Of a stretch of 64,000 nt of DNA, positions 15,135-39,100 are shown piece by piece; the first letter of the stretch is position 1, and the number at the start of each line of letters is the position of its first letter. The notes beneath the pieces were generated by a model. It ran no database searches. It saw only the letters and a list, made by a program, of their open reading frames with translations, and was not told the DNA's origin. The DNA comes from a virus. The stretch covers positions 1 through 64,000 of IMG/VR virus record IMGVR_UViG_3300025853_000048. One strand, written 5' to 3'. The position numbers and the translations under genes were made by a program.

Positions 15135-18100
15135 TTATCCCCGGGCATCCTGCCGTTTCTTAATCTCCGCATCGCTCGGTGGTCTGCCGCCCCTACGGAA
15201 GAAGGACTTCCTGGCTGCTGACTGGGCATCGCTGATGCGTTTTTTCAGCCTTTCCTTATCCCTCTCCTTGGGGTTTTTCGCGGCTGATTCGGAGACGCCG
15301 CGTAAAGCTCTTTTGACTGCCACTCCTCGCATCCGCTTCAGTTCATTTTGCTGCAAGGAGGTAAGTTTTACCGTCTCTCCAGTGCGCGGATCTTTGTAAG
15401 TCCTGGTGCTGGTCAAATATGGGTACCACTTCTCATTGGGGTTGGCGTCATTCCAGTTCTTGGCTAGGGTGTCAGCTCTGCGGGTTTCTTCGTTGGGCTT
15501 GATGCCCGCTGCCAAGAACTGGCGACTGAACCATTTGCCGGTCTTTTCAACCGGTTTGCCATCCAGATCAACCTTTTTAGGCGCTCTAACGCCTCCTGAG
15601 ACAGCATTGAGCGTTCTGGCCTTCCAATCCATACCCTTGGTGTCCCGCTTGTAGGGATCGGCGTTACGGATGGTCTGAGGGATGAAATTAGGCATGATCA
15701 TTCTGGACAGGTTTTCAGGGATTTCAGCCACCAAATCAGATGGTTCTTTTCTTCCCGCTCCTCCCAAAAGGCTAGTCAGGGCATTAACTCCGCTCAACGG
15801 CGTACCTTCAGAGATGTTGTATTGAGCTCGTCCAATCACATCATTGAAGATCGAAGCGATATCCTCACCGTTACGGAGTCCCGTAACGCTGCGGTTCAGA
15901 TCAACCAAACCGGCGATAATACCCGATACCGGATCCAGCTTTGCGTAAGAGAATACCGGTTTACCCTTCCAAAGAACCATCATTGGTCCGCCCTTCATGC
16001 GGTTGAGCAATTCCAGACTGTTTTTGTCCTCTACTCCAAAAGCCCGGGTGCCGGTGATGCTGATTAGTTTATCCTCGTCATCGTCCTCTCCTTCGCCTAA
16101 AGCACTGAGAATCAGAAGTCCAATGGCAGCGATAGCCTGATCAGCTACATCGCGCAAGAAAAGCCCTGGAGTGTCACCGTTGTATTGCTCGATGAACGTT
16201 TTGCCATTGCTGCCCTTAACCGTTGCTGCCCATCCCATCTTGCCGAGTACCGGCAACAGGTTGAACCCAGTTCTCCGCAAAGTTTTCTTAGTCAAGTTGT
16301 AGGGAGTCGAAACAAACGGGAATATGATCGTCAATCCGAGTTTGGCCATTGTCCCGGCCCCGGTATCCTGTTTGAAATCAAGTAACTTGCGGACTGCGTG
16401 ATCTGCCAGGTTGCCGCCGTCTTTTTTCCTCTTGATTTCATCCTGTGAGGTGATCGACTTGCCGAACTCATTAGCCAGCACCCATGCGTCACTGCCGAAG
16501 ATGCGGACTTCGCCAGCCATGAATTTCTCTAACGCGTTGCCAGTCAACCCTTTGGCTTTGCCGAGTCGGTAAGCTTGCGCCCAAACATCCAGGTGGTTGC
16601 CGAGTGACTGGAAGAACACATCCATCGTGGAAAGAATACGGAACGAGGTTCTTGCTATCTCACCCCATCTGCCGCCGATAGCGGTGCGAATCACATCCAC
16701 CTTGCCACCGTGCTCAACGTCGGACTGGGCTGTGATCTCACTCTCCAGGATATTGCCGTCTTGTGCCTGGACTGTTCGGGCAGCGAATGATATCGCTGCC
16801 TTGACCGCTTTCGGCCAAGCTTTCCGCATGTATTTGAATTCTCCAATCTGAGGCCCGGATGGGTCTTTGATGATCAGGTTCAATGCCGCTTCCATGCGCC
16901 TCTGGATAACGTGTTCCAGGCCGAAGTTGGCAACGTTGGCAAAGATGTTCATCGCCTGAGTTCCGACTCCTGAAAGCATCGCTGATTGCATGTACTCAGT
17001 AAACGAATCAATGATGTTGCCCATCGCGGCATTGGAGTAGTTGATCAGGCGGGTGATTTGCACCTCGTTTGTCGGATCGAACTTACTGCTGTCGAACACG
17101 TCCTGCATACCAGTTATCCCCGGCATCTTCGATACGGCTTTATTCATCAGCGCCAATCGCTCCCTGTTGATCCTCCTGGCGCGTCGTAACCGCTCATCCT
17201 GTGTGATGCCCCGGTCATTAATCTCGGCGCGTTGAGCGACCCGCGGGCGGGCTAGAATGCGAGCGTAGCGGTCTAACTGTCGTTCACGCTTATTGGTGTG
17301 TGGATCCCCCCTGTTCACCGCGTCACTGACTGAGTAGGCCAGTAGCATCGCATCGTCAATTGCTGCCTGGTTGCCGCTCGCCAGGGCATCTGCCATGACC
17401 TGCGGTAACAGGATTTGAGCCACCTTGATGTCAACCGGTTTGGTCAGGGTCAACTGGTTGGCCGCATCCTTGCCGACACTGGCCACTGGTTGTCTAATCG
17501 TGTCCAGCAATTCGGACAAGAGTTGGGCACGATCTCCTTGCGCTACCCGCTCCCGGGCAGCGTCATCCCATTTTTCGTGGGATTCGCGGTCATTGGCGGG
17601 CAGGTCGTCCAGATTGACCGGCTGGTTCATCTGGTTCGCGGCAGCGGTCGCCGCGGAGTAGAGGCTTAAATTAGGCTCGGTCGATTCAGCTATTTCTTTC
17701 AATGCTGCCGAAACTTCGGGATCGTTGACGTGTTGAGCAAATTGCCCAGCCGCCATTTTGGCATCATCCAGTTCCTCTACTTCGTGTTCCTGTAGCTCGA
17801 AAACCATGCCATCTTCATCTCGGTGGCGAAATGTCAGTCGATTGATTTGCTGAATCAGGTTACTTAACCGCTGTCCCTGGTCCTCGTCCTCAATATCAGA
17901 CATCAGGTTTTCATCCGGTTCGCCAAACGATGCAACAATCAAACCCGTGTGGCCGCTGGTGGAAATCCTTTGAAAGGTGGAACCCTTGGCCATATTATCC
18001 TCGACGAACTTCTCAGCTTCCTCCCTAGTGTTAAATCGCTTGGCCCATACGATCGGCTTAACTCCATCCACCTCAGTGGAAAACCGGATAGTTACCAAAT

Positions 18101-21100
18101 CAGAAGTAGTCCAAAGACGGGATGAAGGTGATATAGGCATTGTAAATAACTCATAACTCATCTCAATCGGGTCATGCGGCCTTGGCTCGGTTTGCGTGGG
18201 AGCGGCAGCGGAAAACAGAATTGATTCGCTCTGGTCGTTGAAACGCTCGGATAGCGGGACTCCAGTGAACGGATCGGCGGATTTGATCTGGTTGGGGGAA
18301 AGAACAAAGACAGATTCATCCCCGATAGATTCCACTTCGTTTTCGTAAATTACCCCGTCAATACCTTTTGCAAGCAATGCCCTTTGCAATTCTTGGTATG
18401 TGAAATCGGCATCCATTATCTGATCGATTTCAGAATCGGAAAGCGTTCCTTCTGGGAGGTTCTGAATAATGTCCCACGCTCCCCATGTCCCAAGATCCGG
18501 CATTCTTACGAGATTATCAGTCTTCAGGAAAACCTTGAGAGGGTCTAACGTTTTGGGTTGTTTATCGACAAATTCCTGAGCCTCTTCTTCAGTCTTAAAA
18601 GGCCCCCTGCCGTCGTTGTCTTCACTGGACCAAACCCAATAAGTGTTGTCCTCTGTATCATGTTCGATCTCGAATTCAACATTATCACGACCTTTGGCAA
18701 TGTCTCTCGCCGCTGAAAGGTTGCCGAAATGGGCGCCTTCGACATCCCTTAGATCAAAAGTATCGAAATCATAATCTGACCAATGATACCACGGACCGTT
18801 CGTAAATCCCGCATCCTTCGCCGCTTCATCCACCAACCTCTGGGACTCTGCGGTTTCCTCTTCGGTGATGGTCCCGGCGTTGTGCTTGGCTTCCAGTTCG
18901 GCGTGGCGGGCGTTGCGGTCGCGGGCTGGGACCGATGCAGCGGAGTAGAGTTGCGGGGATTGGTCTGGTGTCTTGAGCGAATCGTAAACTTCGCGGATGT
19001 TCTGAAAATCACCCCAGGTTCCTTCAGGAACATAAACCCATTCGTCCTCTCCCGCTAAATCGCTGTAGACTTCTGAGCCGTCCACTTCAAGACTTGTGGT
19101 TTGAGAATTTTCTGAGTTGGATTCATGCGATCCTGCGTATTCTTTCTTGAAAGATACCCAATCACCAGCTTCAATCTCGACTCCCTGCGGAGCGGCACGG
19201 TAAATAGTAACTTCACCGCTGCCCGCATTGTAGTAATCATCACGCTCGCCAGGCAGTCCCATTCTTGCGCGTCCCAGTCGGGTTAAGTTGCGTCGGGAAA
19301 TATCGAATAGGCTAGGCGAAAGAGCTTCATCGAACTCATCAAAACTTTCAGCCCAATCTACCAGTTCCTGTAAAGCGGTATCAAAATCATCTGATAGTTC
19401 TGGAATATTGGCTAATCTAGTTTGGCGATGCCTCAAGAAGTCCCGCCTTTCTTTCTCTTCGGCTTTTCTTTTTACCTGCTCTGGGTCGCGATTGTTGATG
19501 TCCTGAAAGACTTCACCGATGACGCGCCCTTCTGCAGTGGATGCGCTATTATCAACTGAATCGGTAATGTCAATGCCTCCGAAGAAAAAGTGAGGCTTGT
19601 ATTCAATATCCCAAACCACCGCTCGTTTCTTGTTCTTGTAGATAGCAACTGCGAATGGGTCACCGAGAAACTTTTCGCTGTTTTCCATCGTTGGCCTAAT
19701 CATATTGGGATGATCGCGCCAGAGTGAGGCAAACTGATCAATTACTGATTCTCTGTCATCGGATCGAAGGCGCATCAGTAAATCTTGACCTTCTGGTAAC
19801 GGCTCGGTTTCCTGATCCCTCTCATTCGCCGCCCGCGAAGGATCAACTTCGCCGCGGGCGGCGTCGTTATTACTCATCTGTGGGGAACTAACGCCAGGAT
19901 TGGCAGGTTGTCCACTGCTTGCCGCGGAATAGAGGGCAGGGTTGGTTCGTTTGGATCTTTCTTGAATAAAGATACGATGCTCATACTCTGACTTGGCGTC
20001 ATTTTGAGCCATTTTCAAAGTGTCGTTATAGTAATCGGGGAATTCCACAACTCCATCAAAAGCGACCTGGTATCCCTTATCGCTCTTAATGATCTCTATT
20101 ACAGGTTCTTTATCCAGCAAAGATTCAGTATCTTCAAAATTGAACTCAGGATAATTCCCTGATTCGGCTAAAGCGTCTCCACCTAATTCCTCTTCTATTC
20201 CCAAAGTGGACGGGTCGAGAAGAATTTCATTATCCGCTCCAGAGTTGCTCAATGGGATTCCGCTTACTCTGTAAATAGGTAAATCGGAACCCGATAAATA
20301 ATCCTGAGTTACAATCACTTCTCCCATATCAGTCTCCTCTCCCTGCCCGTCCAAAAGGAATAGTTCACCATCCGCGTCACGAAAACCTTTGTAAACCGAT
20401 ACTCCTTTTTCAGACTTCTGAGAAAGGTGATTGAAAGACGCTTTTCCTTTTTTTGGTTTACCAAACCTGTAATAACCGACTTCAATTTTTCTTTTGGCCT
20501 GAAATCCCGAGGGGTGCTCAACCCATACTTCATGCATTGGCGTTTCCCGCGTGCTTGCGGCGGAGTAGAGAGCGGCACCCTGGTTGCCGCTACCCCTCGC
20601 CACAAACTCGTCATCCCGGTCAAACACCGCTTCTTCCTCGCGGTCACTGATGATGATCGGATCGATGAAGTGTAACTGCCCATCAATCAGGAACACGTTG
20701 TCCCGCTTGATGTCGCGGATTTGCAGGTCGCCTTTGCGCCAGCGGCCTTCACCTTCAGAAGTAAACCCAATTTCGGCCATCTTTGCCGCAACTGCTTTCT
20801 CCCAGTCGGCTTTCTTCGACTTACGGGCAACCCTGGGGTCGTGTGCCGGCTGGCTGATCACCACCCGATAACCACCGTCATGCAAGATCACTCCTTCGAA
20901 CCGGAAACCCGAACCAAGCAAGGTGTTAGCCGCTTCCAGTCGATCGAAGTATCCGATCAAGTCCTGGAAGTTATTCAGCCCGAACCCGAATCCGGGAGCG
21001 TGGGCAATCTTCAATACGCGACTGGAATCATTAGGATCAACCCCGACCTGGTGCTCTGCACCTGCCATGCTCGGATCATCAAACAATTCCTCGTATCGTG

Positions 21101-24100
21101 AGCTCAGATCGTCTCTTACGCGGATTTGTCCGCTTTCTGCCGCGGCCCTGAGGACTCGCTGGTCTTCCGCTCGCTCGGCCTTGCGTCTGGCTCGGAACGT
21201 TTCCTCCGGTGTTCGATCCTGGCGAGGTGTTTCGCGAAGGGTTTGCCGTGCTTGGCGGATGGTTTGGGTGTCTTGTCCATGGTTTGATAGTTTATCATTA
21301 GTTTGAGTGCCACGCAACGGGGTTGCTGCGGAGTAGAGTTGCGGTGAAGATTCTGGATCCCATATCATTGACTCCATAGTCCTGAAATCTTTATTCCTCC
21401 CAGTATTCCTCACGAACCCTAAATTCTTGTAGAATGTTTCTAATCTCTTTTTTGAAGAAGCTCCATGAACCGTATCTGGTGTAAGAGCAATCGTCATGCC
21501 CATAGAGGATGCTAATCCTTGCAACTGTTCCATTTTTGCAGTCCCTATTCCTTGCCCTCTTTGGTTCTCAGGGACTACTATTTTAGACAGCGTGATAATT
21601 CCACGATGTTCTGAAATATAAGAATCTATACCTTCTTTCTCCCATTCATTCATCAATTCCTGAAGATGAATATTCGCATCAATGTCCTGAGGATCGGCAT
21701 TGGGATAGCCAAACAACCTAGAAAACTCGTTTGATAGTTCCCCTTTTTTGTTTTTGAAAACCGGAGCAGAGGTGTCTTTGAAGTCGAAATATAAGTCATC
21801 TCCTTTGGTGTAGAAGTCTACATCGTCTCCCTTGAAGGACGACTCAAGATTTCTGGCACTAACCTCGTTACCTGAAACCTCCAATCCAAACCCCGTACCC
21901 GCAACCGGTTCAAGGGTAAATTCAGGGTGTAGCAACATATCAACGTGCTTCAACCCCAATATCCCCATTTGCTTTAGAAAATTACCTTGCTGGTAAAGTT
22001 CTTCACCTATATCGTTCCGGTTTGATCCCGATCCACCAAAAATCTCTGAAAACGATTCGCTCATCCCGCCGTTTTCATCGAAGACTTCTTCACTCCATAA
22101 GTCCAGACCTTGATGGGTGAACGTGAATGGGAATGGGTCGTTTTTACCAGCGTTGTAACTCATTAGCAACTCAACCGGCTCGCCATCAAAGTAAAATCTT
22201 GTGGAAGCGTCGTACATTTCTCCAGACTCACTTAAGGCAGGCGTAAAATCACCGCTATGATCAATAACAAATCGATCGGATAGCATCCCTCGGTTCTGCC
22301 AATCAGCAATCTTACCCATCAGTGTGAGGAGTTTGCTTTCATTAAAGAAATCTCGCGGTATTACCCGCTCGTACGATTCGTCATTCCATCCTGCCATTGG
22401 TGCTGCCGCGGAGTAGAGTTGCGTTCCCTGCTCGGTTTCTTCCAGTTGATTAGTGTCGGTCTTGGTTGAATTCCAGACGGTTCCAGGTTTGAACTTAGTT
22501 GGCTCACTCTCCTTTTTGGACGGTTTTGTGATTTCAACCAAATAAGTATTCACTCCGGTTTGGCGGAAACTTTCCTGTCCCTTGAAAGAGCCTTCTGGTA
22601 ATTGTTCGTATTCACCGCCTACCGAATCTAGCCATTCGCGAAATTCTTTCTTGGATTTTGTCTCGCCGAAGAACGGACTGGCACTCATCACTGCCACAAC
22701 TTTGCCTCCAGGTTTAACCATTTCGTAAGCCCTTTGGACGTGTTGCATATCCTGCCCGTTCTCAAACGGCGGATTCATGATCACCGCATCATAAGGCTGA
22801 TCGGTTTCGAAGGTGGTAAAGTCTCGGGATACCAAATTGATCTCCTTGTCCTCCAGGATATCGCGAAGGGTGGAATCAATCTCGATCGCGTCCACCTCGG
22901 CACCGGCTTCAACCAGTGATTCAGCAATGTCTCCTTTACCTGCGGATGGTTCGAGAACTCGATCACCTCCGCCGATTCCCGCCCTCTCAATCATATCTTC
23001 AATGATTGGCTTCGGAGTAGGGAAGAATCCGTCTATCTTTCTGCCTATCAGGGCGCGTTCTCTGGCCTTCGCGGGGTCTTCCTGTGTCTTCGCACCCTTA
23101 TACTCCAAAAACTCTCTCAGGGCGGCTCTTAGGGCCACCAGATCATCGATTCCCATGCGCTTGGTGCGGTCATAGTCCTCAAACTTCCAAGCGATGTCAT
23201 CCCAGTAGGTTTTACCCCGGTCGTTGCGAGTCTTTTTGGCCAGTTCGCGGATATTTTCGATGTCTTGAGCGTTGGAAGTCTCCAGTGATTGTCCATCATG
23301 GCGATTCATGGATATCTTGGCCACTTTGTTGGCGAGCATCTTCGCGCCCTTGGTGTTTCGGCCAGCTTCGACCATTTGCATCAGCGTGCTTTTATCAATG
23401 TATACGGTTGGGTACTTGGCTTTCGCCATTTGATCCGGTGTGGCGGGTTCGTTGCTGTGGTCCTCTTTCCATCCGCCGTCTCTTTCGCGTTGGGCTTCCC
23501 CTTTGGCTTGCTCGGCCAGTTTGTAGAGCGTTTCGATGTGGGATGCCGCTTTGATGCCGTCCAGGTGTGTAGCTTTCCCGCTTTCAATCGCATCCGCCAA
23601 ATTTCGCAAGGTGGTTGCGAATGCTTTCTGACCTCGGGCCTTGCTCTCCGCTCCTGCTGCCATTCTGGCCTGGCGAGCGGTATTCTGGCGACGATCTTGA
23701 TTCAGTGCCTCATCAGCGGTCTTGTCCATCCGGTCAGCCATGCTGCGGAATCGCTCGGCAGTCTTACTGTTCGCGGCAGTTTCCTTTTCCTGCTCCTGCT
23801 CAGTGGCATCGACGGTTTCACCTTTCACAACTGCCTCAAACTGTCGTGCTGCTTCCATGGTCTTGAACTGAAACCCTGGGATCGCGCCGTCTTTGCTGTA
23901 GCGACTGTAGTATCCACCCAATTTCTTGGCAGCGGCATTCAGGCTGCGGTAAACATCTTTGTCTACTCGGTCTGCCAACTTCACAACAAACAGATCATGG
24001 CCATGCTTGGTATGCACGGTTTTCTCGATCGACGTTTCGGTATCAGTTTTAACGCCCGTGACCGAAACTTTGGATTCTTTCTGTGCCTGCTCCAATTCCT

Positions 24101-27100
24101 TTCGGTTGATGCCTCTAATCTCGTCAAATTGGACGAGTTGCTCAGGAGATAAGCGGTTTTCGCCACGGTCCATGATCCGCTTACGGGCCTCATACGGACT
24201 ACGAATCGCGTTCAGTTCCTTGATTTCATCCTGGGTAAGTTCGGCTGTGCCTTGCTTGTAAACGAACTGCTCCCACTCATCCAGGGTTTCAGGATTGGTC
24301 AGAGCTTTTTCTTTTGCTGCTTTCTTCTCTTGGCGTTCCTGGAAGTCGGATTGGATCTTTTCATCGGTCCATTTCTCAACCGCTTTGTCCATCTGTTCGC
24401 GGCGGGCTTTCTTCCAGTCGCTTCCAAAAGAATAACTCAACGATTCACCGGGGTTGAATATACCCTGCAAGTTTTCGTGAGCGGTTCGCACTGCGTCGGC
24501 TTTATTGTCGGGTTTGCGATAGCCTTGGAACCTGGCCAGTTTCTTCATGGTCAGTTTGGCAAGTTCCGCCTCTATGGCATCCTCGTTTTCCTTGTATTGG
24601 CTCCATGCTTCGCGGACTTGATCCGCAGTCACTTTGCCATCGATAATTTGACCGTTGAACTCAAGCAAGTTTTCAAGGGAGTCTACAGCAGGAATTGAAT
24701 CCGCCTGTTTCGATGCTTCAGGCGTTTGGCTTTCTGCCACTTCAGCACTCTTTTGCTGGATCTTCTGATCAACCATGTGAATCCGCTCTTTAATATTGCG
24801 GATATCCCGACGCAATTTGTCGGTTTCCATGTTGTATCCACCACTGATCAAAGACTTGCCATTTGCAATCGCTTCCTCGCGAGTATCAGGACCGAAACCG
24901 GTGCCGTAATTAACCCATTGCTTGCGGCCATTGATGTCAGTAACTTCAAGTGCCTTGCCTCCCTCTTTCTTCACCGGCCCAAACGGTTCTTTTTCCTCGA
25001 CCTGGTATTCAGCTTTTCTGGCAGCATCGCGCTCCGTCTCTAACTGATCCATCTGAGCTTCAAGCAACTCGGCTTTCATCTTGTTCTTTGCCCGAGTCTT
25101 GATCATGCTGGCAATTGACTTGAAAGCCTTGTCCCCTTTGAGTAGCCCTAAAGCGTCCTCAAGAGAAACGATTTCAGTTTTACCGTCTTTGGTTTCCACG
25201 CTGAACAGGTGGACCAGTTTTCGCCCTGTCCGGTCGGATAGTTCGGCGTTGTCGAAATCTGAAACCCTGGCGTCTACCAGACCACCTTCATAAGCATCGT
25301 ACTTGACGCCTCCAGTCCATCGCCATTCGTAAGAAACGATCTTGCTGCCATCGCTAACCGGAATTGGTTTGGCGAAAATGATGGTTTCAGTAGGTTTTGT
25401 CCTGCCTGGGGGCGCCTGCTTGCTTTCGCTCTCAGGCAAACCTTTGCTTTCTGTTTTATTAGAATTTTGATCCTTCCTCTTCCGATCCTGCTCCCGCTGT
25501 TTATCCGGAGTCATTCCGGGTTTAAACACTTCGATCTCAGCGTTAGGAAGCATTGGTACCCACTCGGTTGTGGGGTTATCTCCGATTGAGCCGATTAGCA
25601 CGTTAACAAACTTGCTTCCCTTCCTCTCTCTTACCTCGTAAACTCGCTTGCGACCATCTTTGAAATAATCGACTGCGGGAATGTCCCGCCCAACAGCATC
25701 CTTGACGGAAATATTCTCGGTAACGCTGGTATCCAAAACCTGCCATTCGCCGTTCTCTTTGCGGACGTGGTAACCTTGGGATTTCATTCCCGCCTTATCA
25801 GTTCGCCACGCTTCCCAAAATGAATTATTCGGTTCGGCGATGCGGGCGTTTTGGGGCATCCCCTTGATTTCGACCATCTCAGTTTTGCCCCACTTCAATC
25901 CGAAGCCTTCGCGACCTCGCTGGCGCTTCAAGTCAACCCACATCGTCTTACCTGCTGATTCAGGTAGGCCGACCTGACTTTGGATAGATTGCGTCGGATC
26001 AAAACCAATCTCTTCGAAGTATTCTCCTTTGTCGTAGGGTTCTGACACCCTCTGAACTCCTGCCGTCCAATATTGCTTGTTGCGCGGAGTGTTCTTCAAC
26101 CCGAGAACGAAAAGCGGGGTATCCCAACCTTTTTCGCCATAGGTTTCGACCACTGCCACGGCAAGATCAAGATCGATATCAGACTTCGCTATCAAGCCTG
26201 ATTGCCGCTTGGTTTCGTTCTGAATGATATCAATTTCTTCCTGTCTCTGCTCGTCGGTTGTCACCGCGTCCAGGAACTTCTGGCGACCACTGAGAAAAGC
26301 GGCATCGAGTGCCTTCTTGCGGTCTTCAAAGATTTGTTTCTTAGTCTTTGGTTTTTCATCGAACAACTGTTCCTGCCCGACCTCTGCATCCTTCTCGGCA
26401 TCGGTGCGGGTGTCGGGAGCCTCGAATTCCGTTTCTACGGTCTGCTCTCCCACCAGGGAGAAGTCCTCTTCCACGCCCGCGACCTGGAACATGTCGGCGT
26501 TGTCATTGATTTCGGTCTGGTTGGTTTTATCCTTCCTAGTTGCAGCAACGATAGTCTTGACATTCTCCACGCTATCCAGGCTGGTCTTCATGCTCTTGAG
26601 CGCCTTGATGGTTTCGCTCATCGCTTCAAGTCCCCGCTTGAATTTGACCGGTTTGGCGATTAGATCGAGTTCAAAAGCACTCGCGATGCCCAGTAGAGCG
26701 CCGACTGGATCTCTCTGCTTAATGTCGATCCCTGTACCGATAGCGTCGGCAACCATGCCCACGGGTCCAGGAATCAACCCTACTGCGGAAGCGGTGAGCT
26801 CCGCGGCGTTAAGAAATAGTTCTTCCTCCAGTTTCGCGGCTTCCTCCGTGCCAAGGGTTTCCAGTTCCCGGATCGCATCAGGAACGGTCTTTGTAAGCAT
26901 TTGCTTGCTCAAAGTTACCAGCTTCTTGCGGGCTTCCTTGCGTTGCTCGTTGGTGATCGCCTTGGACCGGGAAACCGCTATTTTGATTTCAGCCTCGATC
27001 GCATCAAAGTCATCGCTAAGTTTTTGGAAGGGTGACTGTTGACTTAATTCTCCTTCTTCGCCTTCCTTCGTGCTTTCTGCCAGAGTCTTTTCGGCGGCAC

Positions 27101-30100
27101 CGGTTTCCGGGAAGCCTGCGATTCGGTTGATTTTGGCGAAGTAGGTTTCTGGGCTTTGGTCTTGTCGTTCATCGTTAAATATATCCTCGGTTTGGGATGC
27201 GTCATCACGGTTTTTCTGTTCGCGTTGTGCGAACGTTAAATATTCCCGAAGCGTCTCATCGAACGGGAATTCGTTAGAACTCCGGTCTTTCTTCAGCTTC
27301 GTTGAAGTCACCAGGTCATCCAGTAACAGTTGACCGATCTCAGAGAGTGGTTCGCTGACCAGTTCGGCTTTACGGTTGGTCAGCCAGTCGGACAGGTTGC
27401 GGAAGTTGCCCTGCTCGACTGCGTGCATTCCCGACCGCAGGGAAAGGATCGCTTCGACCACATCGCCTGCCAGGGACAAATCATCGTCGAGTTTCGCCAG
27501 TTCCGGCGCTACCTTGGCAACTGCGGAGACGATGCGCTTGCCGCCGTCGCTCTCCAGTATAGCGGTAACATCAGCGGAGTCTTTCCCTGCCTTTTCCACT
27601 AGACGAGTCACAAATGCTGCCATGACTCGACGGGATGCTTCGGCCTGGTCAAATTCTCCCGATTGGGTCCGGGTGATTCCCCTGGCAGATTGTTCCAGTT
27701 TGGTGGCGACTGCCCGCAGAGAATCGGCGGTGAGTTGATTATTGACGTTGAACCGCAGCCCGGACAGGGTGCTGTAGCCGATGGCTTCGGCATCAAGTAA
27801 CGCCTGCTCGGAAACGGATTCGCCGAGTCCGCCCTGTTTCGGGTTGCTTTCGACCACGAAAGATCGTTGATCGCCACTGGTGAACTCAATCACTTCGCGG
27901 ATAAGGACCGGTTGTTTGACCCCGGCAAGATTAATGCCTTCTTCCTGCGCAAAATCGCGAACCGCAGTTTCGTAGGCCATGGCGTTGCCCCGTTCGTAGG
28001 CGAGGCGTATTCCGCTCGATCTTCCGTTTCCGGCGATAACGCTTCCGCCTGAAACAACCGGAGCGCCATCGTTGGCCTTGCGAGAATCTAGCAGGAAGTC
28101 GGGATCGATGGATGAAGCGATTCGCTCTATCTGCTCCATCGAAGAACGATTCCCGCTTCTCTGTCGGGTCTGATCAGCATTGATCTCTGCCTCGATCATC
28201 CCGTCTAAATCTGTGGCATCAACCACCCTGTAACGGAAAGTCGCCTTGGCCCCGTTCGGGGTTCCGGTTGAAATAGTGCCGTCAATATCGGCCACATCCG
28301 GGCTTTTCGCGCCATCTGCGGGGCTTTTCTGTCCGGTATTAGGTTTCCTGACAGTTACTGCCGGTTTCTTGTAGTTGATTGGTGTATAAACTGTTCGACC
28401 GGATTTGGTGCCCTTCTGAGCGTTGGAAAGATCAACGTCGTAACCTCTCCTTGAGAGTGCTTCGTAAACCCTGTAGGCAGGCTCCGAAACATAGTTGTCT
28501 GACATAACATCTTTCCCATCCTCATGCGCCTTGTCAATAATCGCCTGGTAAGCCTTAATTCCCAACTTCTTGCCCTGATGTATTCCTTGCAGGGTGGATT
28601 TATGGATTCTTACTTTACCTTCATACTCACCGGCAGTCACGTACCCGACTTCTACGTCTTTTTCATCCCGTATCGAAGCTCTAAAACCATCCTCAGAAAG
28701 TTTAATTGACCCTTCTTCCTCGAAAACGCTCTCGTCCAGGTCGAAGACTCCGGTGTTGCCGGGGTGCTTGCCTGCCTTCGCGGTCTTCTTCGATTTGGTT
28801 TGCGCGAATTCCTCCAACCGTTGCACTTGCTCTTCGGTGATCGGAGCCAGTTTATTTGGAGCATTAACGTCATCCCAATCAGCCTCCCGCTTCTGGCCTT
28901 TATCGACCATGAAGACCTTGGAAATGAAATCTTGCGCTTCCACCCCTTCTTTACCGATGCTCGCCTCGCTGTAGCCGAGCAACTCTTCAATCACTCTGTC
29001 TTTGTCATTGCGAACCGATACAACATCGCCAACTTGCGTCCTTCTCAGGGCGAACATGACTTCAGCAACCCGGGAAAAGAATGCGCCTTTTAGACCTTCA
29101 TCCTTGCTCGCTTCTTGATGGGAGAGATCTGCGATTCGTCCCGCTTCCTTCTGCAACTTCAAGCTTCCGGCGTAGGTTTCGATGGCTTGCTCTGCCAATG
29201 CAATAGGATCGGTTTTCTTCGCTGCGGTCTTCTTCTTGGGGGTTTGCACAGCAACCTCTGAGAGGTCCATTTCCACTATTTGCCCTATCAACTCCTTTGG
29301 CCCCGGCTCGACAATTGTTCCTGAGAAAATACCGTTACCCAAATCATTAGTGACCTCAACACTCCTGAAAATACTGCTACCGGTTGGGTCGTAATAAATA
29401 ACCTCACCTACGTTGGGGTATTTTGTGACACCTGGATGAGGTCCGGGGTGTCTTTTTGAATCTTCTGAAAGGTCTACTCCTGTTATGTTTACCAGGCGGT
29501 CTTTATAGGATTCTATCGCTGCCTCAACCTCGTAGATTGACAACCATCCACCCGTTTTTTTCAACAACTCAGATTTAGCCTTATCGGTCTTGAGTTCATT
29601 GTAGCGACTTGTAATACTGAAAAGATCACCAAGGCGTTTGCGGTGCGCAACTTCTGAAGCTGATTTGGGAAGTGCTTTTCTGGGGTTATCACTCCACAAT
29701 TCAAGTTTCTTGCCTGGGGCTGACTTTGCAAAAATAGCAGCGCCTTCCCCTAGACGTTTCTCTTCCGCATCTTCAAAGTCTTTGCCGGTTTCGCCTTTGA
29801 TTTCATTGATCTTATCCTGATAGGATTTACCATCCCTCCGTTCTTTTTCTTCCCAGAACTGAACGGCGTCTTCAATTCGTTGAGACTCAACTGGAAGAGC
29901 GTTGTACCGTTCACTTTCGGCGCTTATATCAGCAAGAAGTTTAGACTCAACATTATCAAGATAATCTTTCACCCCGACCCAGAAAAACAGATTCTTATTT
30001 GGGCGGACATTGGCACTTGATGAGAAATTACGAACTTTCTCTCTAACCATGTTAAGCATGGAATTCACCTTATCCAGATCCCTATTTAATCCTTCAACAT

Positions 30101-33100
30101 AATGAGATCCAACCCCCGTGGTTCTGGCAGTATTTTTCCATTCCGGTAATTGTTTCTCTGCGTATTCAACCCCCCTCTTCCATTGTTCATCTGACTGGCT
30201 ATGTTTATCCCATGCGATCAGTTTTGTGTTACCAGCTGAATCCGTGGTGCGTTTTGATTTGGTTAGCGTGTCAGGTTTCTCTTCAGCAACTTTCTTCTTA
30301 GCCTTCGGCTTCCGGGTTTCAGCTTTCGGGGGTTCCCCTTCCAGCGCCCTTTTCTGAGCTTCAAACTTCTTCCGGCCCTCCGCGGTCAACTCCTGAGTAC
30401 CATCTTTCTCGAACTTCTTCTTATAGATGATGCCGTTATTGGCCAGCACCTTGGCGCTGCCGGGGTGACCTTTCTTGCCTTCGCCGATGGCCATCATGGC
30501 GCGGACCTGGGCGGCATTTAAACCGTCTGGACGCTCGCTCTTGCCGGTCTTGGCGGCGTGGATGGAGTAGCCGGTTTTGAGAAGTTTCAGCTCATTACTC
30601 ACCACTTCCATGGTTTCCTGGCTGCGGTCACCGAGGATGAATTTCTCCAGTGCCGGATTGATCATCAACCCGTCCGCTTCACCTTCCTTGGAACGTTGCA
30701 ACTGGCTAGGCGTATCGGCGTCGCCCATATCAACCACCAGGATACGCAGATCCAGAAGTTGGTCGTATTCCTCCGGTGACAAATCCTCGCCGTTGATCCA
30801 TTTTTTCAGCTCTTCAGCGTGGCGGATATCGACTGTTTTCTCAGTGGTGTCCTGTGGATCCTGGGCGAGCGGTTTGCCCTGCCAGTCGAGCGGGAGTAAA
30901 GATCCCCGTTCTTCGTTCTTGGTTCCTGGTTCTTCGTTGGTTGCTGGCCCCATCGGGATGTTGCGACCGTCCACCTTGCGGTGGAATTCCTCGTACTGGC
31001 GCAACTCTTTGTCGCTTGGCTTTTTAGCTCTGCGACCAATGGCGAATAGGTGCATATCGTCTACTCCCAGCTTGAGAGCAAACTCCCGCTCACTATCCGA
31101 AATGTAGGATTGTTGATCGTGTAGAGTCAGGTTGCCTTCGCCTCTTTGGTAAATGCGATACAAACCGTCTTCGACTTCCCGTTTCGAGAATCCCTGATCC
31201 ATCACGATGGGGACCAGTTCTCCCAAGGAAACCATGCTGCCGGGGTTGTCTGATAGCCGCGTTGCCACCTTGGCAATTTCAGCGTCCACGGCGGGGCGGT
31301 TCGGGTAATCGGCTATTCCGTTTTCAGTCGGGAAGGATTCTTGAGTTTCTCCGCCCTCATAAACCGCGAATCCCTCATCGATCAGGTATTGCTTGTCAGC
31401 TTCATCGAGCGATTCCTCGCCCTCATGGACTAGGCGTTGCAATACCTCGTCGTCCTTGCCCTTGAGTAGGCCGGTGTAGACGTTGATCGGTTTGAACTTC
31501 TGGCGCAATTCATCGAGATCTTTATCGACAACCGAGTAGGTGCCCTGCGATGGGTCGTAGTTGTCATCGATATCGCTCTTGCTGAATCCGGCTTGCTCGG
31601 CCTGCTCGATCAGCTCCAGCTTCATTTCGCTGGTCTTGGCCTTGGCGTATTTCCGGCGCAACCCGGCCAGTTTCTTGCGGCGCGGAGCCTCTTGCTTGTC
31701 CCGCTCGATGGCTTCGGCGTGTCTTTCTGCCCGTTGCTGGTCCTCGGACTTGGCCTTCTTCTGTCGTTCGCGGGTGGTTGCTGCCCGGGCCTTGTCGCGC
31801 TCTGCTACGTATTCCTTGGAGTTGCCAGCTTTGATATCGTTCACGCTGCGGCGCTCCATGTGGTCGCCAGATCCAGCAATGATGATCTCATCGAAGATGT
31901 CCCGGATTTCGTTGGGCAACTCGCCCTTCAGGTGAGCATACAGGTTCCTGGCAATCTCTTTGACCACCCGGAACGCTTCCTTAATCTTGTCGCTGGCTCC
32001 CTGGGGGAATTTACCTCTGCGGAAATATTCCTCGGCGTGTTCCGCGAATTTCTCTTCTGACTCCGGACTCCAATCGTCGGTTGCTTCACCGTAAAATTCA
32101 TTGAGTCGATTACCGATTTCAGTTCCCTTAAGCAGTTCACGGTCGAGGTGAATGATTTCGTGAAGCAAGGTGATGGCGTCGGCCTTGCCCTCGATCAGGC
32201 CGATGAGGTTATCGGCGCGACGGTAGAAGCCCTTGATTGCGCGGCCCTTGCCGCCACGCTGAAGCAGGATCGCGTCTTCCGGTGCGATGTTTTCGCTCGA
32301 ATACGGCGCGATGGCGGCGCGTTGCTCGGCGGTGAGGTTCGCCCGGGACTGGACGTCGCGGGCCTCGATCTCGCCTGCGGTGCGACGGTAATCCCTGTCT
32401 GGTGCAAAAATTCTCTTCTCACGTTCTTTTTCGTATTTCTCTTTTTCGTGTTGATACCATTCCCGCGCCTCATCGATGTCTGACATCATTTCCGTCAGTT
32501 CCAATTCACGTGGATCTATCTCCCTGTCTGCTAACCGAGAATACTTCTTCGCCGCCAGTTGTGCATTTTCAGCATCCAGTTGTGCCGCCGATCTGCGCTT
32601 GTATTTCTCAGCTAGTTCTTCCGCGTGCTTGATCCGCAGTTCGTGCCGTTTACGAAGTTCTTCTACCGGTGTTGTTCCGTTCTCTTCGGCAGATTCAAAA
32701 TATTTGGTCACCATGAACTTTCGACTGACTTCTTTGTTCAATCGGTCGAAATCTTCATCAGCCATTTGCATACCTTGGCGATGCTCTAGCGGAGAACTCC
32801 CTCTTGCGAATCCTTCTCTATGCTGAATAGCGTGTTGAATTTCGTGCAGGAGAGAACTCAACCCCCTTCCTTGTGCGCCTATCGAAATTCTCTCTTTTCC
32901 TCCAATGTTAATATAAACCGCATCTATTCCGTCTTTCAACGAAACTGGAATCTTGCCAATCTCAGGATATGCCTCAAACAAAGCCGTATGATCCAGCAAA
33001 TCGCGCAACTCAACTTCTTCAGTGTCGCCGTTTTTCAACAGATCTAGAACCTCATCGTAAATCTTCGCACCCTCGTCAGGAATCTCCCAACGCATCTTGC

Positions 33101-36100
33101 CGTCGTACTTCCCAGGGAACCAACCCGTAGCGGCGCGGATCGTCTCGCTGTCCCTGCCTGCCGCCGCCATCGCCTTGGCTGTTTCCAGGCTGTCGGCCAT
33201 GAACTGCGGCACCTCGGCGTTCTCGCCCGCGAACTGGTAGAGGATCGAGTCTTTGTCGGAGTCGAAGCGTTGGGAGAGCGGGATGACTTCGCCGTCTTTG
33301 TCGTAGGTGACAGGATCGGCTGATTTGATCTGGTTGGGGTTCGTTGTCACATAAACAGTAGATGAACCAGCTTCCGCGTCATCCATCCAACTATCACCTA
33401 TGTCTTCAAATATAATACCATCGTATTTTGTGTCATCAAAATTCCTTACTACATCTTGAGTGCTGCTACCGTGCTCCGAACTCAACTCATCCCATTTTTC
33501 TCCTTTGGCATCTATAACCAAAGGTGTTTCCATTTTTAAATAGACATCGTATACTCTTTCCCCACTTGCATATCCATCGGCGTTCCACCAATCATCAGTG
33601 AAGTAGGAAAAATCGTTGAAAACCTCGATGTTTTCCGCATGGCTAGTTCCATGATAAGCAGGGCCAATATTATATCCTGCCTCTTTTGCTGCCTCATCAA
33701 TCAACCTCTCCACAGTGTTTAGATCCCCAGCCTCAACAGCCGCCAGATACTCCCTATCGCGCTCCTCATCCACCTGCTTGAGCGTATCCCGGCCCCGCGC
33801 CTTGCGAACCTTATCCGGCACCTGCGCCAACGCCTCAATCGAGAATTCAGCCTCGCTCAATCCGGCCTCTTTACGCAGCTTTTGCGCCCCGGCGATCAGT
33901 GCGCCGGCCAGGTCGGTCAGGGCGTTGATTTCGTCGTCGGTCTTGGCTAGTCCGAGCTTGCGGCTCAGTTCGGTCAGTCCGGCTGAGATTCTTTCGTATT
34001 CCTGCTGCTGCTTCGGCGTGAATTTCTTTTTGGAGAGGGTGTCGGTGATGGTTCCGGCAGTTGATGATGCATCTTTCGCTTTCGCTTTCTTCCGCTTGGG
34101 CTTCGATAGCGTGTCCAGGTCCAGATCACCACTGGCGAAATCATCGGGATTGGCATCGGTCTTGGGCTTCGGAGTGGGTGCAGCTTGCTTACCACCTGTC
34201 AAATACTCAGCCAATGCAGCGGGCGCTTTATTCAAGTTACGCTTGGCTTGCGCGATCTGCTTGCTTTCTCCAGGCAGAGCGAGACGAGTTTTACCTTTCT
34301 CATCAGTCGGGACGTACCCTTGATCAATCATATCCAGCAGGTAGGTCAACTGACTGGCCTTTTCGCCGGGACGTTGTTTCTTAAGGGCATCCTCGATGGC
34401 ACCCTTGTCCCTCGGTGTGGCATCCAGTGAACTCAGGTAATCAATCAGGACTTCGGCTTCCCGAGCGGGCATTCCCTCAATATCAGGCTGGAAATCACGG
34501 CCCGCTGCCTTGCGCTGGTTCATCCAGTTTTCATCGTAGTAAGCATCAGTTCTGCTCACCGCATCGTAGAAGTAGGAACCGATGCTGTTGCTCTGAATGA
34601 TTGCCACTTCCTCAATGATCAATTGCTGGCGCATATCCTCGGGCAGGAAATCCAAAGCTTTGTGCAACCTGCCAACCAGGTCCGGTTTGGAAATCTGGTG
34701 GTGATATTCTTCTTCCAGTGCCTTGATGTTATTCTTGGCCTGACGTTTCAGTTCCTCGGGACTGGTCTTATTGCGTCGGAACAGGTTAGCCATCTTGTCC
34801 ATGATTGAATCAAGCTTGGCTTTGGCTTCGGCGATGATCGGCAGATTCTTGACCGAATCCCAGATACTCTTCTCAACCCCTTTCAAGGTGTCTTCCGCTT
34901 TCGCCCGTGTGGTTGGGTCTAACTCGGCGAGAATCGCGTTGCGGCGTTCTATCGCTTCGTTTCGGTTCGCCTGCTTCTGACGCAAGTTCTGCATCAGTGT
35001 CGGCGGGATATTGACATAGGAATAGGTCTGATTGCGGTCGGATTCGTAAACCACCCGCATAGCGCCTGTTACAGGATTCCAACCGATCTTGGTGATAGTC
35101 CGCGATCCGTGCTTGAGTCCCGACGTGGCAATCCACTCCATATCCGGGTCTTCCGGAAGTTGCGGCTCGAGCAGTTCAGCCCGCTCCCTGCCGGTCATCC
35201 CTGGTTGCACTTCAAGATCAGGCTTCGGTTCGGGTGCGGTGGCTTTTTCCTCACCCAAAAGCATGATTTCGTCCAGCACCTTGCGGACTTCGGCGGGAAT
35301 ATCGTTGTGGATCGGTGATCCGGCCAGTTGCGCGTAGATGCCGCGTATAACTTCTGCTACCTTGGCCAGTGCTGCCTTCAACCTGTCCGGTAACCCATCA
35401 GGGAAGTCTCCGTCCCGCATATAGCGTTCGACGTGACGGGCAAAGACTTCTTCCTGGTCATCGGTCCATTCGTCGGTAGCGATGCCGTACGCGGCGTTCA
35501 GTTCGCTACCGAGATCAGTGCCCTTGAGCAGTTCCCGGGACATGTGCGCCACCTCATGCATGATGGTGGATTCGTTGGCCTTGCCCTGGATTAGCCCAAT
35601 CAGGTTCTGTGATCGGTCGTAAAAGCCCTGAGGGTCGCCATGCTCATCCTTGGAGAAGAGGATGATTGCCTCTTCCTTGGCAATGTTCTCGATATCGTAA
35701 GGTTCGACCAATGCGCGGACCTTGGCGTCGTAGGTGAGTCTGCCCTGAGTGTCGCGGGCTTCGATCTCGCCCGCCGTGCGCTGGTAGTCGGCAAAACCTT
35801 TCTCAGCGGCGCCTATCCCGTCCGGTCCTTCAATTTCCTGAATACGAGCAACATACTCGCTTCGTTCGCCCATCAGGTAGTCATACCTCTCTTTATTGCC
35901 CTCTTTGGACGCAAGGGACATCTCTTCATTGAGATACATGACGTACCGGTTGAGGTCGTCCACGGTTTCCTTGTAGTTACGAATATTATTTTGGAAGTTG
36001 CCACCCTTGGCGAAGCCTTCCTCTTCCTGAATCCAGTGCTGAATTTCATGAATCAGGGTAGATAGTGCGTCTTCCTTGTTCTTAGCCCTAACCGTGATTT

Positions 36101-39100
36101 GCGGCTGCAGGTCGAACAGTCCTTCCGATTCGCGGTTTTCGTAGGGTTGGAATTCTCCACCCTCATCCTTTACATCAGGGCCAATTGTGATAATCAGGTC
36201 CACGTTGCCTACATCGGGGTATGCTTCGTAAAGTTCTGGGTGATCAAGAATATCGCTGACAAAAGTTGCCCTGGTGTAATCAGATTGAACTGGTCGCACG
36301 GTGTATCCGGAATCCAGCTTGTTGAGTTTTGTCACTTCAGCATCCGCTCCTGCCTGGTCGTCATACCCGGAAACCTCGTTGCCTCTGGAGTCCACAACGT
36401 TGTAAACGGTTGCGGAATCGCTCACGCCATCCTTGAAGGAAGCGCCTTTATCCGGAATCTCCCACCGCATCTTGCCGTCATACCTGCCTGGGAACCAGCC
36501 GGTCACGGCCCGGATCTCCTTGGCCGACTTACCTGCCGCTGCCATGGCCTTGGCTGTCTCCAGTGTGTCCTGCATTACCTCTGGAATAGCGGCAGTTTCG
36601 CCAGCGTATTGGGTAAGCACGCCTTCCTTCTTGTCGGTCATCCGCTTCAACCGCTGGAAGACCGCTTTTTGCCGGTTCGGCTTCAGGCTGGCGACATTGT
36701 TCAGGAAGTGAGCGGTAACCATTCCCAGGGCTGCGTCATTTTCACGATCGCCAGTTTCCAGGAAAGTAACCATCTCGCGTACCGCTGCATTGACCGATTT
36801 CGGGTCATTCAGGTCGGCGGTTTGTGGAGTCTTGCCCCCCGCTTGCTCTTGGAGCTTCTTGCGTGCGGTTTCCCGCTTGTCTTGATCACTGACTTCCTTC
36901 TTTCCAAGGTTGCGCGGTGGCGTGTAGCTCGATTCGGCTTGGCTGCTCGCCTTGGCTATGCCGGTAGTCGTGGGGGGAACCGTTTCCGCCACAACACCCT
37001 TTTTCCCGGCAGTTGTGGCGGCTTCGACCGGCTCGACAATCGCCTTCATCGGCTGAAACTCGCCAACCCCATCGTGCATGTTCCAGCCGGGGCGGATCAC
37101 TCGCACTTTTTCACCGCGGACCACGTTGCTTTCGCCCGCGTGTAATCCAGGATCGGCAGAAACAACCTCGCCTTCTGCCCCGATCTCGATGAATCCAGCA
37201 TCGCGAAACATCTCGTTAATCAGCTCGCGGGTTTCATCGTTCTCTGCGTGCCTGTAGGCCGTCTGTAGCTGTATAAAAAACTTGCGTTGCACTTCTGCCG
37301 TGGAAGCATCGATGTGATTAATGCTCCTGCCGGTAATGCCTTTCGCCTCGTCCGCGAATACCGTTTTGATCAAACTGTTGAATGATGCACGCATGGACTT
37401 CATCACCGCTTTCGGAACGGTTTTACTCTTATCCATTTCGCGCATCTTCGCCTTGGCGTTGGCAACTGCTGTACGGAATTCTGCCGTCTTATCGTCCACC
37501 TGGGCTTCCTCCACCACCTCAGGGTTCCGCATCTCATCCAATCGGCGCTGAAAATCCTGGCGATTGCCAACTAAGTGCGTCGAGTAGTTGCGCTTGTAAG
37601 CATCAAACAGTTGATCGTCATCAGCCTTGCCGTCGAAACTCTCCTGCAGGAAGGTGATGTTCTTGGCGAAGGTTTCGGGGGTGATGGGAACTTGCTTGGA
37701 TTTCGGCTTCTTGGTGCTGGGCGCTTTACTCCCGGATTCCTCGCCCTTCCACTCATCGACCACCTTCTGCCCAGCCTCGGTAATCTCATACTCTCCGGCC
37801 TCGTTAAGCCTCGCGTAAGCCTCCGGGCGCTCTTTGGTGGTGTTGGTGAGGAAAGATAGATATCGCTTGCCAGCGGGCCTGTCCGTGTCTCCTGCGAGGT
37901 TTAGCAGGGCATCAAACATGGATGCGCTGGAAATACCTTTCGGAAACTTCGGTTTTGCGCCTTTCGCGGCGTGAATTTCGATATTTTCAGCCAACGACGG
38001 CGTTTTGGCGTCCAGATCCGGACCTGCCGCCTGCCGCATCTGGTTGAGACGTTTGACAATCCGTTTCCTCTGATCGATGGCCATTGCCTTGGTTTCCGGA
38101 TCCTTGATCTCGGTAATCATCCGGGATAGGTTTTGCGCCACCTGCTTGAGCCACCTGATAATGACCGGCATCATGTATTCGATACCCTCAATCTCTGTAA
38201 CCCGACCGGCAAACTCCTTGTCCTGGATGATCATCCGGTGGAATTCGTGAGCGCCTAGAAAGTCTCCTTTTTTCAGACTGGAGAAACGATCAACCGGTTC
38301 ATGCCCCAGGTACTGTTTCAGATATGTGATAATTTCCGGCGTACCCTTTGCTACCTGATCGATAAATTCATCGCTAATATCCAACGACTCGCTCCGAGCA
38401 ACTTCCTGATCGATTATTTCGACAGCTTCTAGGGCATCTTCCCGGTATTGTTTCGGGACGCCTTTTAGACGGGAAATAAAGTATGATCGCTCCACTTCTC
38501 GTTTGATATCTTCAGGCAAGGCTCGCCATAACTCTTTAGCCTCTCTTATCGACAACTCCTCTAGTGCCGCCTGGTGAATCAACTCCTCACTGAGTAATAC
38601 AGCAATCCTTTCCTGGGAGTAACCGCTCCTGGCCAGCCACCCCAGATCGACCTTCAGGGCAACATCGCCATTGGGTAACTTGCGGACGCTCATCGCCGTG
38701 CCGGAAGCGACTTCCTCAAGGCCAACTTGTTGAATTTCTTCAATCGGTCCGTAAACAATACCCCCTGGAAACGCACGCTCGCCATACTTGGCAACTTCCA
38801 ACTCGATCACCTCTGCAACTTTTTCAGCCTTTTTCTGGTAAGTGGGAGGGATTTCATCGATTGCCACGGCAAGATCATCGGTACCCTGGTCATTCGGCAC
38901 GATGTAATCCCTTTTCTCCGGCAACGGATCAGGAACCTTGTTGCCTTTAGGTTTCGGGTAGGCCTGCTTCTGCTTCGGACGCTTGCGCTCGGTCGGCTCC
39001 TTGCGCTTCGGCTTGATCACCGATTCAATGCCGTCAGTCAGTTCTCTCAGTGCCGGGTTTTCATCCAGGTTGTTGTAAATCCAGTTCAGGAACTTCTTCA

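Follow-up and report, generated by a model that had tools for sequence, protein, structure and literature searches.

Why should one short peptide mark every border between the unrelated modules of a single giant phage protein? The question is raised by an uncultured, podovirus-like freshwater phage of about 89 kb, which is represented by the IMG/VR virus record IMGVR_UViG_3300025853_000048 (89,449 bases; estimated completeness of 86%). The first 64 kb (64,000 nucleotides [nt]) of this record made up the stretch that was analyzed, called the window below. A giant polyvalent-protein gene on the reverse strand (15135..43922) takes up about one third of the record and, according to the list of open reading frames (ORFs) and their translation, encodes 9,595 amino acids (aa). 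In the last quarter of this protein, within aa 7169 to 8754, the peptide L[YF]SAA occurs seven times, six times as LYSAA and once as LFSAA. The first-pass annotation had proposed that these junctions constitute a DNA crossover site for the addition or exchange of modules, a cleavage site for the protein's own zincin peptidases, or both. We consider it somewhat probable that the junction peptide is recognized by a protease, which would cut the chain into pieces at these sites.

Seven copies of one peptide separate six unrelated modules

All seven annotated copies were recovered in the 15135..43922 frame, each within 3 nt of its annotated position (all features of the giant gene given here lie on the reverse strand). 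The first junction, J1 (LYSAA, aa 7169, 22404-22418), stands directly behind a methyltransferase-containing region and is followed by J2 (LYSAA, aa 7529, 21324-21338) and J3 (LYSAA, aa 7785, 20556-20570). J4 (LYSAA, aa 7997, 19920-19934) uses the Tyr codon TAT and is a DNA copy with one mismatch, while J5 (LYSAA, aa 8325, 18936-18950) forms the N-terminal border of an ART-PolyVal-like module. J6 (LFSAA, aa 8569, 18204-18218) is the most divergent DNA copy (CTG TTT TCC GCT GCC), and J7 (LYSAA, aa 8754, 17649-17663) begins a C-terminal piece of 837 aa.

From composition, 0.0101 copies of LYSAA would be expected, compared with the six that were found, and a six-frame scan of the whole 89,449-base record confined the strict L[YF]SAA motif to the giant ORF. 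The residue behind the two alanines was A, T, or S at all seven junctions, and the 15 residues on each side of the motif were less hydrophobic than the gene at large (hydrophobic fraction of 0.19 versus 0.27; P = 0.006). The remark that several modules have a Met soon after the junction also held, with a Met within 15 residues at five of the seven junctions (25% expected; P = 0.012).

The six modules between the junctions measure 185 to 360 aa (555 to 1080 nt). As had been claimed for these units of 0.55 to 1.1 kb, they proved to be unrelated to each other (no pairwise similarity at E < 0.01) and unlike in composition: the GC content at third codon positions (GC3) was 0.433, 0.602, 0.401, 0.451, 0.525, and 0.508 for modules 1 to 6, compared with 0.577 ± 0.063 for the N-terminal part. 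Homology to F116-like phage proteins ended at about aa 7140, 29 aa ahead of J1. Most high-scoring segment pairs (HSPs) with the GNAT modules of other polyvalent proteins stopped at aa 7519 to 7535, around J2, and the HSP of the ART module stopped at aa 8571, inside J6, where the last two residues of the ART-PolyVal tail (PLSERF..SILF) are the Leu-Phe of the junction. Contigs from other samples bridged six of the seven junctions with at least 31 nt on both sides, zero differences, and the same module order (J2 among them, J3 with a contig of run X4, and J7 with a contig of run X7). Thus, the array is not an assembly artifact.

Related giant proteins carry junction peptides of their own

The only part that this protein shares with the whole of its family is a conserved C-terminal domain of about 650 aa (15198..17135; aa ~8930-9575). 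Eight giant proteins were found as relatives in the first search. None of them contained L[YF]SAA; several had recurrent peptides of their own, namely, T-LSAA-R, S-LLSR, and L-x-A-GPLP. With a Bonferroni-corrected Poisson threshold, a significantly recurrent 4- to 6-mer was present in 49 of 125 family proteins of at least 1500 aa and in 30 of 80 related loci. Copies that were dispersed and had unlike flanks were seen for L[NLF]-QSER-[IV]A (six copies), L[FDNS]-AAPL (six), L[QY]-AAPL-D (four to five), L[FQK]T-SPLP (four), L-x-A-GPLP (four to seven), L[YGS]A-TERP (four), A-LFSSP (five), L-x-A-ADRP (four), and L-x-SRRA (six). One position was L, I, V, M, or F in all copies of 21 of the 27 motif sets picked by eye.

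For a test that did not depend on such picking, the ART-PolyVal tail RF[DN]....SIL was used as the anchor (37 tails in 32 nonredundant proteins). The 4-mer after the tail recurred at least three times in its own protein in 15 of the 37 cases, compared with 1, 0, 3, and 1 of 37 at the control offsets of -60, -40, +20, and +40. Entire ART modules were flanked on both sides by the peptide of their host protein in P0133 (positions 1930 and 2131), in P0007 (5058 and 5253), and in the phage studied here (8325 and 8569). A widespread module of about 330 aa was likewise bracketed in P0260 (1607 and 1946), P0234 (4280 and 4601), and P0255 (3990 and 4299). Outside the family, GNAT and ART modules of polyvalent proteins end in ...VLYQS, ...DLFAG, and ...ILYSG, which suggests that Leu, an aromatic residue (Y or F), and a small residue form a common module tail that has become uniform in this lineage. 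The tripeptide L[YF][SQA] was also tried as a signal across 35 polyvalent proteins and was rejected because it is too common (125 occurrences versus 118 expected).

Proposed proteolytic processing

Its domain makeup places the giant protein among the polyvalent proteins described by Iyer et al. 2017 (PMC5512222), since it joins unrelated domains in one chain, contains PolyVal and LPD families above the Pfam cutoff, and is encoded in a phage head-gene context. Three Pfam families exceeded their curated cutoffs, namely, LPD23, present in two copies (103.1 bits; cutoff, 27), ddrB-ParB (93.7 bits; cutoff, 27.6), and Kinase-PolyVal (27.1 bits; cutoff, 27). Methyltransferase and GNAT domains were found as well, and ART-PolyVal remained below its cutoff (19.2 versus 31.2 bits).

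We propose that the gene encodes a virion-type polyvalent protein that would be built like a viral polyprotein. In this layout, a very large N-terminal part is followed by six unrelated effector modules and by the conserved C-terminal domain, and all seven seams are marked by L-[YF]-S-A-A-[A/T/S] in polar, linker-like sequence. One chain would be made and then packed with the DNA, as is suggested by the position of the gene and by the virion status of a partial homolog, gp60 of Pseudomonas phage H66. Cutting at the seven seams, either in the capsid or after injection, would release an N-terminal piece of ~7,170 aa, six modules of 185 to 360 aa, and the C-terminal piece of 837 aa, and each freed enzyme would act alone in the infected cell. 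LYSAA would be this lineage's private version of a pattern made up of a conserved Leu, one variable residue, and lineage-specific small or Pro-rich residues. Since the peptide is private to each lineage, a phage-encoded and coevolving enzyme or partner may be involved.

What stands of the cleavage site put forward in the first-pass annotation is the site itself, for which the private peptides at the module borders of relatives, the recurrence behind 15 of 37 ART tails, and the chance-level codon identity in 10 of 11 relatives (see below) argue. The cut between LYS and AA was a guess; a scissile bond at or just after L-x, before the Ser, would fit the family pattern equally well.

The cut, the enzyme, the bond, and the timing are all inferred from the sequence, and several observations weigh against processing. 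No copy of the motif is present in the N-terminal 7,168 aa, so that cutting would leave the bulk of the protein undivided. Some of the 49 recurrent k-mers are tandem repeats or of low complexity (PDRPMG and TPEATP), and the junction-like k-mer sets were chosen by eye. A purely protein-level signal does not explain the excess codon identity that is described below for this phage. The search for an enzyme also gave negative results: sequence profiles of PHROG and Pfam revealed no prohead protease among the ORFs of the head module, the conserved neighbor genes of related loci gave no protease match, and a six-frame scan showed the motif to be absent from the capsid, scaffold, and portal proteins. 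Within the family, HExxH was absent from 34 of the 42 members with a recurrent k-mer, neither BLAST (99 large members) nor phmmer recovered the zincin regions of this protein, save for one SprT-like match, and no His, Ser, Cys, or Glu of the C-terminal domain was invariant across 23 sequences.

The last of these results led us to reject the C-terminal domain as the protease; it lacks an invariant catalytic-type residue and has no match among PDB sequences. The protein's own zincin peptidases, named as the cutters in the first-pass annotation, are possible candidates in this phage but lack support in this role, given Pfam scores below the cutoff and the many k-mer members without HExxH. Five HExxH motifs are present in the giant protein, compared with 0.17 expected. 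The first zincin-type pair (35544..36050; HEIQH at aa 2625 and HEVAH at aa 2789) is a candidate peptidase, and its region matched DUF6782, a putative metallopeptidase (E = 8.9e-05), and MPTase-PolyVal (E = 0.054), both under the Pfam cutoff. The second pair (32148..32846; HEIQH at aa 3693 and HEIIH at aa 3921) adjoins LPD23 (E = 8.3e-16), and the remaining motif, HEGVH (39330..39344; aa 1527), is weakly SprT-like. Any HExxH motif occurred in only 30 of the 99 large members (5.1 expected from composition), which points to real zincins in a minority of the family. An embedded zincin common to the family is unlikely, since most k-mer members lack HExxH and the zincin regions are not shared. Pfam domains of four relatives with strong junction peptides comprised PBECR5, ART, InPase, Zeta toxin, ddrB-ParB, and sigma-70 region 4 but no peptidase.

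The second zincin region also holds repeated sequence. Two N-terminal coiled-coil stretches, RKRHELRIKHAEELAEKY and RRSAAQLDAENAQLAAK (near aa 337-355 and 601-620), recur there adjacently, at 32547-32654 (aa ~3757-3792) in the translation. The peptide HAEEL is present three times in the giant protein.

A possible uncut linker or docking tag

The main alternative is that no cleavage occurs and that the peptide serves as a private linker or docking tag. It would then be a short linear motif to which a coevolving phage partner binds, for example, a chaperone or part of the packaging, portal, or ejection machinery, or it would merely space the modules, and the protein would remain one chain. We regard this as unlikely. 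The dispersed, lineage-specific, protein-level conservation in linker-like sequence fits a docking tag equally well, and so does the failure to find a protease among the head genes and neighbor genes, together with the lack of HExxH in most k-mer members. There is also precedent for transfer of such proteins without processing: the available text of Iyer et al. 2017 (PMC5512222) lists the virion RNA polymerase of phage N4 and the plasmid proteins ArdC/TraC1 as transferred unprocessed. However, a tag at every seam between unrelated enzymes would have no obvious use. In some family members, a sigma-factor module lies between junctions, and such a factor would be expected to work when freed from a chain of several thousand residues. 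Furthermore, recurrent, lineage-specific sites at borders are the pattern of viral polyproteins.

Codon identity at the junctions of this phage

The sharing of the plus-strand 11-mer GCGGAGTAGAG by five of the copies, and the extension of three of them to GCGGAGTAGAGTTGCG, was confirmed. With at most one mismatch, the 11-mer matched 7 times, versus a mean of 0.77 after shuffling, and 0 of 100 shuffles reached 7. These matches comprised the five exact junction copies, one junction with a single mismatch (19924), and one unrelated site (11736, other strand). Conservation at synonymous positions was then assessed by comparing the junction copies with simulations drawn from each gene's own codon usage, for this phage and for 11 relatives with DNA. 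Here, same-residue codon pairs were identical in 60 of 99 cases versus 27.6 expected, a value reached in 0 of 5000 simulations. Leu was encoded by CTC at six of seven junctions (14% of the Leu codons of the gene), Ser was encoded by TCC at all seven (24%), and the second Ala was encoded by GCA at five of seven; the third base of the first Ala codon varied across the junctions (G, A, C, G, T, T, and G). DNA identity extended over 11 to 17 nt and ended at the motif edges, except for CGCAA in three copies. In 10 of the 11 relatives, the codon identity of the junctions was at chance (18/50 versus 16.0 for LFSSP and 18/75 versus 24.6 for AGPLP), which argues that selection in the family acts on the peptide and not on the DNA. 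LKSQ in L095 was the only such peptide with excess codon identity (P = 0.004).

Scans for the DNA motif elsewhere yielded little. The 17-base pattern had 0 matches in IMG/VR, where the 14-base pattern had 71 single matches. In JGI metagenome contigs, the 17-base pattern had 40 single matches, which lay in short or unrelated frames without a tblastn match to the giant protein; among five that were inspected, the longest two (L171 and L174) encode an unrelated Gly/Met-rich protein. Neither in IMG/VR nor in the JGI metagenomes did another contig carry two copies. The first-pass annotation had suggested looking for DNA that skips modules. Four runs (X4, X7, X12, and X16) yielded near-identical contigs, in which no joints, indels, module skips, or swaps were found; at a depth of 2 to 6, this is a weak test, and the stretches that lacked coverage in X12 and X16 carry no meaning. 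The junction DNA showed no consensus RNA structure and no inverted repeat, and on the antisense side, plus-strand ORFs behind a reverse-strand GGAG were only 2 to 35 aa long.

Peptide and codons could both matter. The peptide would then be a cleavage or recognition signal, and the fixed codons would serve as short homology for in-frame exchange of modules among coinfecting relatives. This arrangement, which we think quite unlikely, would join the protein-level evidence with the codon identity and the mosaic composition of this phage. However, no exchange event was seen in the four runs or in the motif scans of IMG/VR and JGI metagenomes, and the variable third base of the first Ala codon speaks against simple recent copying, which would have kept that codon alike too. 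In addition, selection for exchangeability would be a weak force. Just as doubtful is a wider proposal, in which an uncultured podovirus-type family of at least 900 members would produce a giant ejection polyprotein with private junction peptides that coevolve with a non-HExxH protease; in the present phage, the code would be dual, with the codons also forming an in-frame DNA site for the slotting of foreign modules.

A very unlikely explanation is that the conserved DNA (CTCTACTCCGC-N-GCA on the coding strand) is itself an in-frame crossover site for the gain or swap of modules and that the peptide is a by-product. The excess of identical codon pairs over expectation, the use of CTC for Leu at six of seven junctions although it makes up 14% of Leu codons, and the P value of 0.004 for the L095 relative would fit such a site. 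So would the GC3 range of the modules (0.40 to 0.60), as parts of different origin would show, and an integrase is encoded in the same genome. In contrast, 10 of 11 relatives keep the peptide while their codons vary at chance, the identical DNA is limited to 11 to 17 nt within the motif, and the first Ala codon has a fully variable third base. The lack of a second contig with two copies, the constant module order without joints in the contigs of the four runs, and the absence of an inverted repeat or RNA structure also count against it. What remains of the crossover site proposed in the first-pass annotation is the excess of identical codons in this phage; a DNA role may exist in this phage but is not a general explanation. 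Finally, with 6 copies of LYSAA versus 0.0101 expected, an 11-mer count that none of 100 shuffles attained, and six of seven junctions bridged without differences by contigs from other samples, the probability that the recurrence is a chance, compositional, or assembly artifact is negligible.

Content of the modules

The functional labels that had been given to the modules were upheld for modules 1 (GNAT), 2 (Kinase-PolyVal), and 5 (ART-PolyVal-like) but not for modules 3 and 4, both of which had been called ART-like. The body of module 1 (21339..22403; aa 7174-7528; 355 aa, or 360 aa with the trailing junction) consists of an N-terminal part of unknown type and a GNAT domain, which matched Pfam Acetyltransf_7 below the cutoff (E = 3.6e-05) and was 39 to 51% identical to GNAT modules of other polyvalent proteins. 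Module 2 (20571..21323; aa 7534-7784) matched Kinase-PolyVal (PF18762) with 27.1 bits at a cutoff of 27. For module 3 (19935..20555; aa 7790-7996), Pfam gave nothing at E ≤ 1, PDB sequences gave no match, and BLAST gave no match of aa 7790-8001 to ART modules. Module 4 (18951..19919; aa 8002-8324) combines an unknown part with a domain common to other polyvalent proteins; by BLAST, its C-terminal part matched P0012 (41% identity, aa 8236-8301) and P0028. The sole Pfam match within aa 8002-8329 was to Cupin_3 (E = 0.075), and no match to ART was obtained. Module 5 (18219..18935; aa 8330-8568) reached 19.2 bits with ART-PolyVal (cutoff, 31.2) and aligned with the ART-PolyVal module of P0010 at 42% identity over ~230 aa. 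It was the sole module that also matched the N-terminal ART of the same protein (aa 3405-3565). Module 6 (17664..18203; aa 8574-8753) is of unknown type and had no notable Pfam match.

Searches of the array modules against PDB sequences gave no match better than E = 0.09. The modules had been likened to captured stand-alone genes; a word-seeded search of limited sensitivity among proteins of 30 to 930 aa yielded no stand-alone homolog at E ≤ 0.001.

Two side observations concern individual modules. Stretches of about 30 nt within the ART-PolyVal-like module (18265-18296 and 18808-18844) were shared with contigs of other organisms in all four runs, and these contigs diverged on both flanks; the first stretch encodes ..NQIKSADP.... 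This sharing indicates that ART core DNA is conserved across different phages in the same waters. The GNAT of module 1 is shared, at ~50% identity, by about 90 near-identical Acinetobacter proteins of 2,270 aa named "GNAT family N-acetyltransferase" (P0039-P0129), which appear to be polyvalent proteins of prophages or plasmids.

The C-terminal domain and its family

The conserved C-terminal domain gave 917 matches at E ≤ 0.001 in a library of 1.84 billion proteins and was common to all 99 members of at least 3000 aa. Among the full-length members listed, it stood at the C terminus, in proteins of up to 7,117 aa. Apart from one fragment that was 100% identical, the closest relatives were at most 36% identical. 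The domain contains the motifs FPFV(R/K)TPYN and EGDDDDD.K..ITGS and had no match in Pfam, NCBIfam, or PDB sequences. When IMG/VR was scanned with the C-terminal piece as the single query protein, no relative was confirmed, and no cultured phage with the domain was found in a collection of 50,697 records. Seven loci in bacterial assemblies carried it, two of them inside Sphingomonas chromosomes. The Sphingomonas members (L201 and L202), which measure ~1,500 aa, lack a recurrent motif, and lie in large chromosomal contigs, are probably prophages.

Sigma-factor modules were found in several members. Pfam matched Sigma70_r4_2 at aa 3619-3653 of P0133 (E = 4.4e-07) and Sigma70_r4 at aa 2614-2661 of P0196 (E = 9e-4), the latter between two QYSGPVPP junctions, and precomputed Pfam lists and one JGI name indicated modules of sigma-70 region 2/4 in P0002-P0006. 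This domain content suggests that some phages of the family inject a sigma factor of their own. The protein of the present phage matched only the first part of the sigma-bearing region ahead of the C-terminal domain (aa 8776-8898; E = 1e-5).

In run X16 (2014, marine), three pieces of the C-terminal domain (15071-15928) carried 1, 9, and 4 differences, and five pieces in the module array (17673-22228) carried none; at a depth of 2 to 6, this contrast is possibly noise.

Genomic setting and comparison with known systems

The giant gene is placed between the genes for the large terminase (59809-61623) and the portal (10082-12289). The region also contains a tyrosine integrase (51464-52585), two DNA methyltransferase ORFs (12451-14092), a low-complexity scaffold-like protein (6037-7482), the major head protein (4481-5932), and an SU10-type adaptor (2900-3628). 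The portal gene lies directly downstream of the giant gene in 65 of the 81 sources examined (the present phage among them), and scaffold and capsid genes come next in related viral contigs.

The methyltransferase-containing region ahead of J1 (22458..24779; aa 6382-7155; phrog_15406, E = 8e-205) shows 35 to 39% identity with virion proteins from several phages, including F116-like ones. It is shared with the "PLxRFG domain" proteins of F116-like phages, among them H66 gp60 (37.6% identity over aa 6401-7140), a protein of 3,787 aa whose annotation states that mass spectrometry verified it in the virion. Unlike H66 gp60, which ends in the NCBIfam tail-700 domain (E = 6.5e-241), the protein of this phage has no tail-700 match; the PLxRFG tail-700 of the F116-like phages occupies the same position as the C-terminal domain of this family but is a distinct domain. 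H66 gp60 contained no significant recurrent k-mer.

As in other polyvalent proteins, a giant multidomain protein is encoded beside head genes and contains LPD23, ddrB-ParB, Kinase-PolyVal, ART-PolyVal-like, GNAT, and methyltransferase domains as well as zincin-type motifs. Release of the domains by embedded peptidases was predicted by Iyer, Burroughs, Anand, de Souza, and Aravind in 2017, who also drew the polyprotein analogy; in its available text, this work names no cleavage or junction motif, uses "junction" for Holliday junctions only, and does not contain "linker" or "conserved motif" (PMC5512222). Unlike the polyvalent proteins as described there, the present protein has a defined peptide at seven seams, with private versions in relatives that mostly lack HExxH. 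The accessible part of a 2026 preprint on phage phi24B describes a virion polyvalent protein of 2,811 aa and does not mention processing, and that of PMC9503650 contains nothing on cleavage sites. Full-text searching of the literature brought up no account of junction peptides in proteins of this kind.

Two kinds of processing system offer a comparison. In head-protein processing, as far as the available text of three sources goes, a short recurrent motif marks the sites at which proteins that are packaged and later ejected are cut within the capsid (PMC5694885, PMC10052503, and PMC7411985). Unlike the T4 and phiKZ prohead systems, this phage has no detected prohead protease, its motif is missing from the capsid, scaffold, and portal proteins, and the motif is of another class. 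Prohead proteases include T4 gp21 and the gp245 type of phiKZ/SPN3US, with the motifs LxE and AxE. [quoted passage not shown] In having a hydrophobic residue ahead of small ones, the junction peptide resembles the sites of the adenain and poxvirus type, a likeness that we take as a lead only. In contrast to these viruses, the present case concerns a bacteriophage whose processing is predicted from a sequence pattern.

Implications

With a seam peptide that is defined and that has private versions in relatives, the processing prediction of 2017 can be tested directly, and the probable Sphingomonas prophages could offer a culturable entry to the family. If the contrast in run X16 is real, strains would differ less in the module array than in the anchor domain. 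Should the codon-level identity prove to be functional, it would reveal the way in which arrays of this kind grow. Beyond this phage, the seam peptide provides a rule by which unannotated phage protein, thousands of residues in all, can be split into units.

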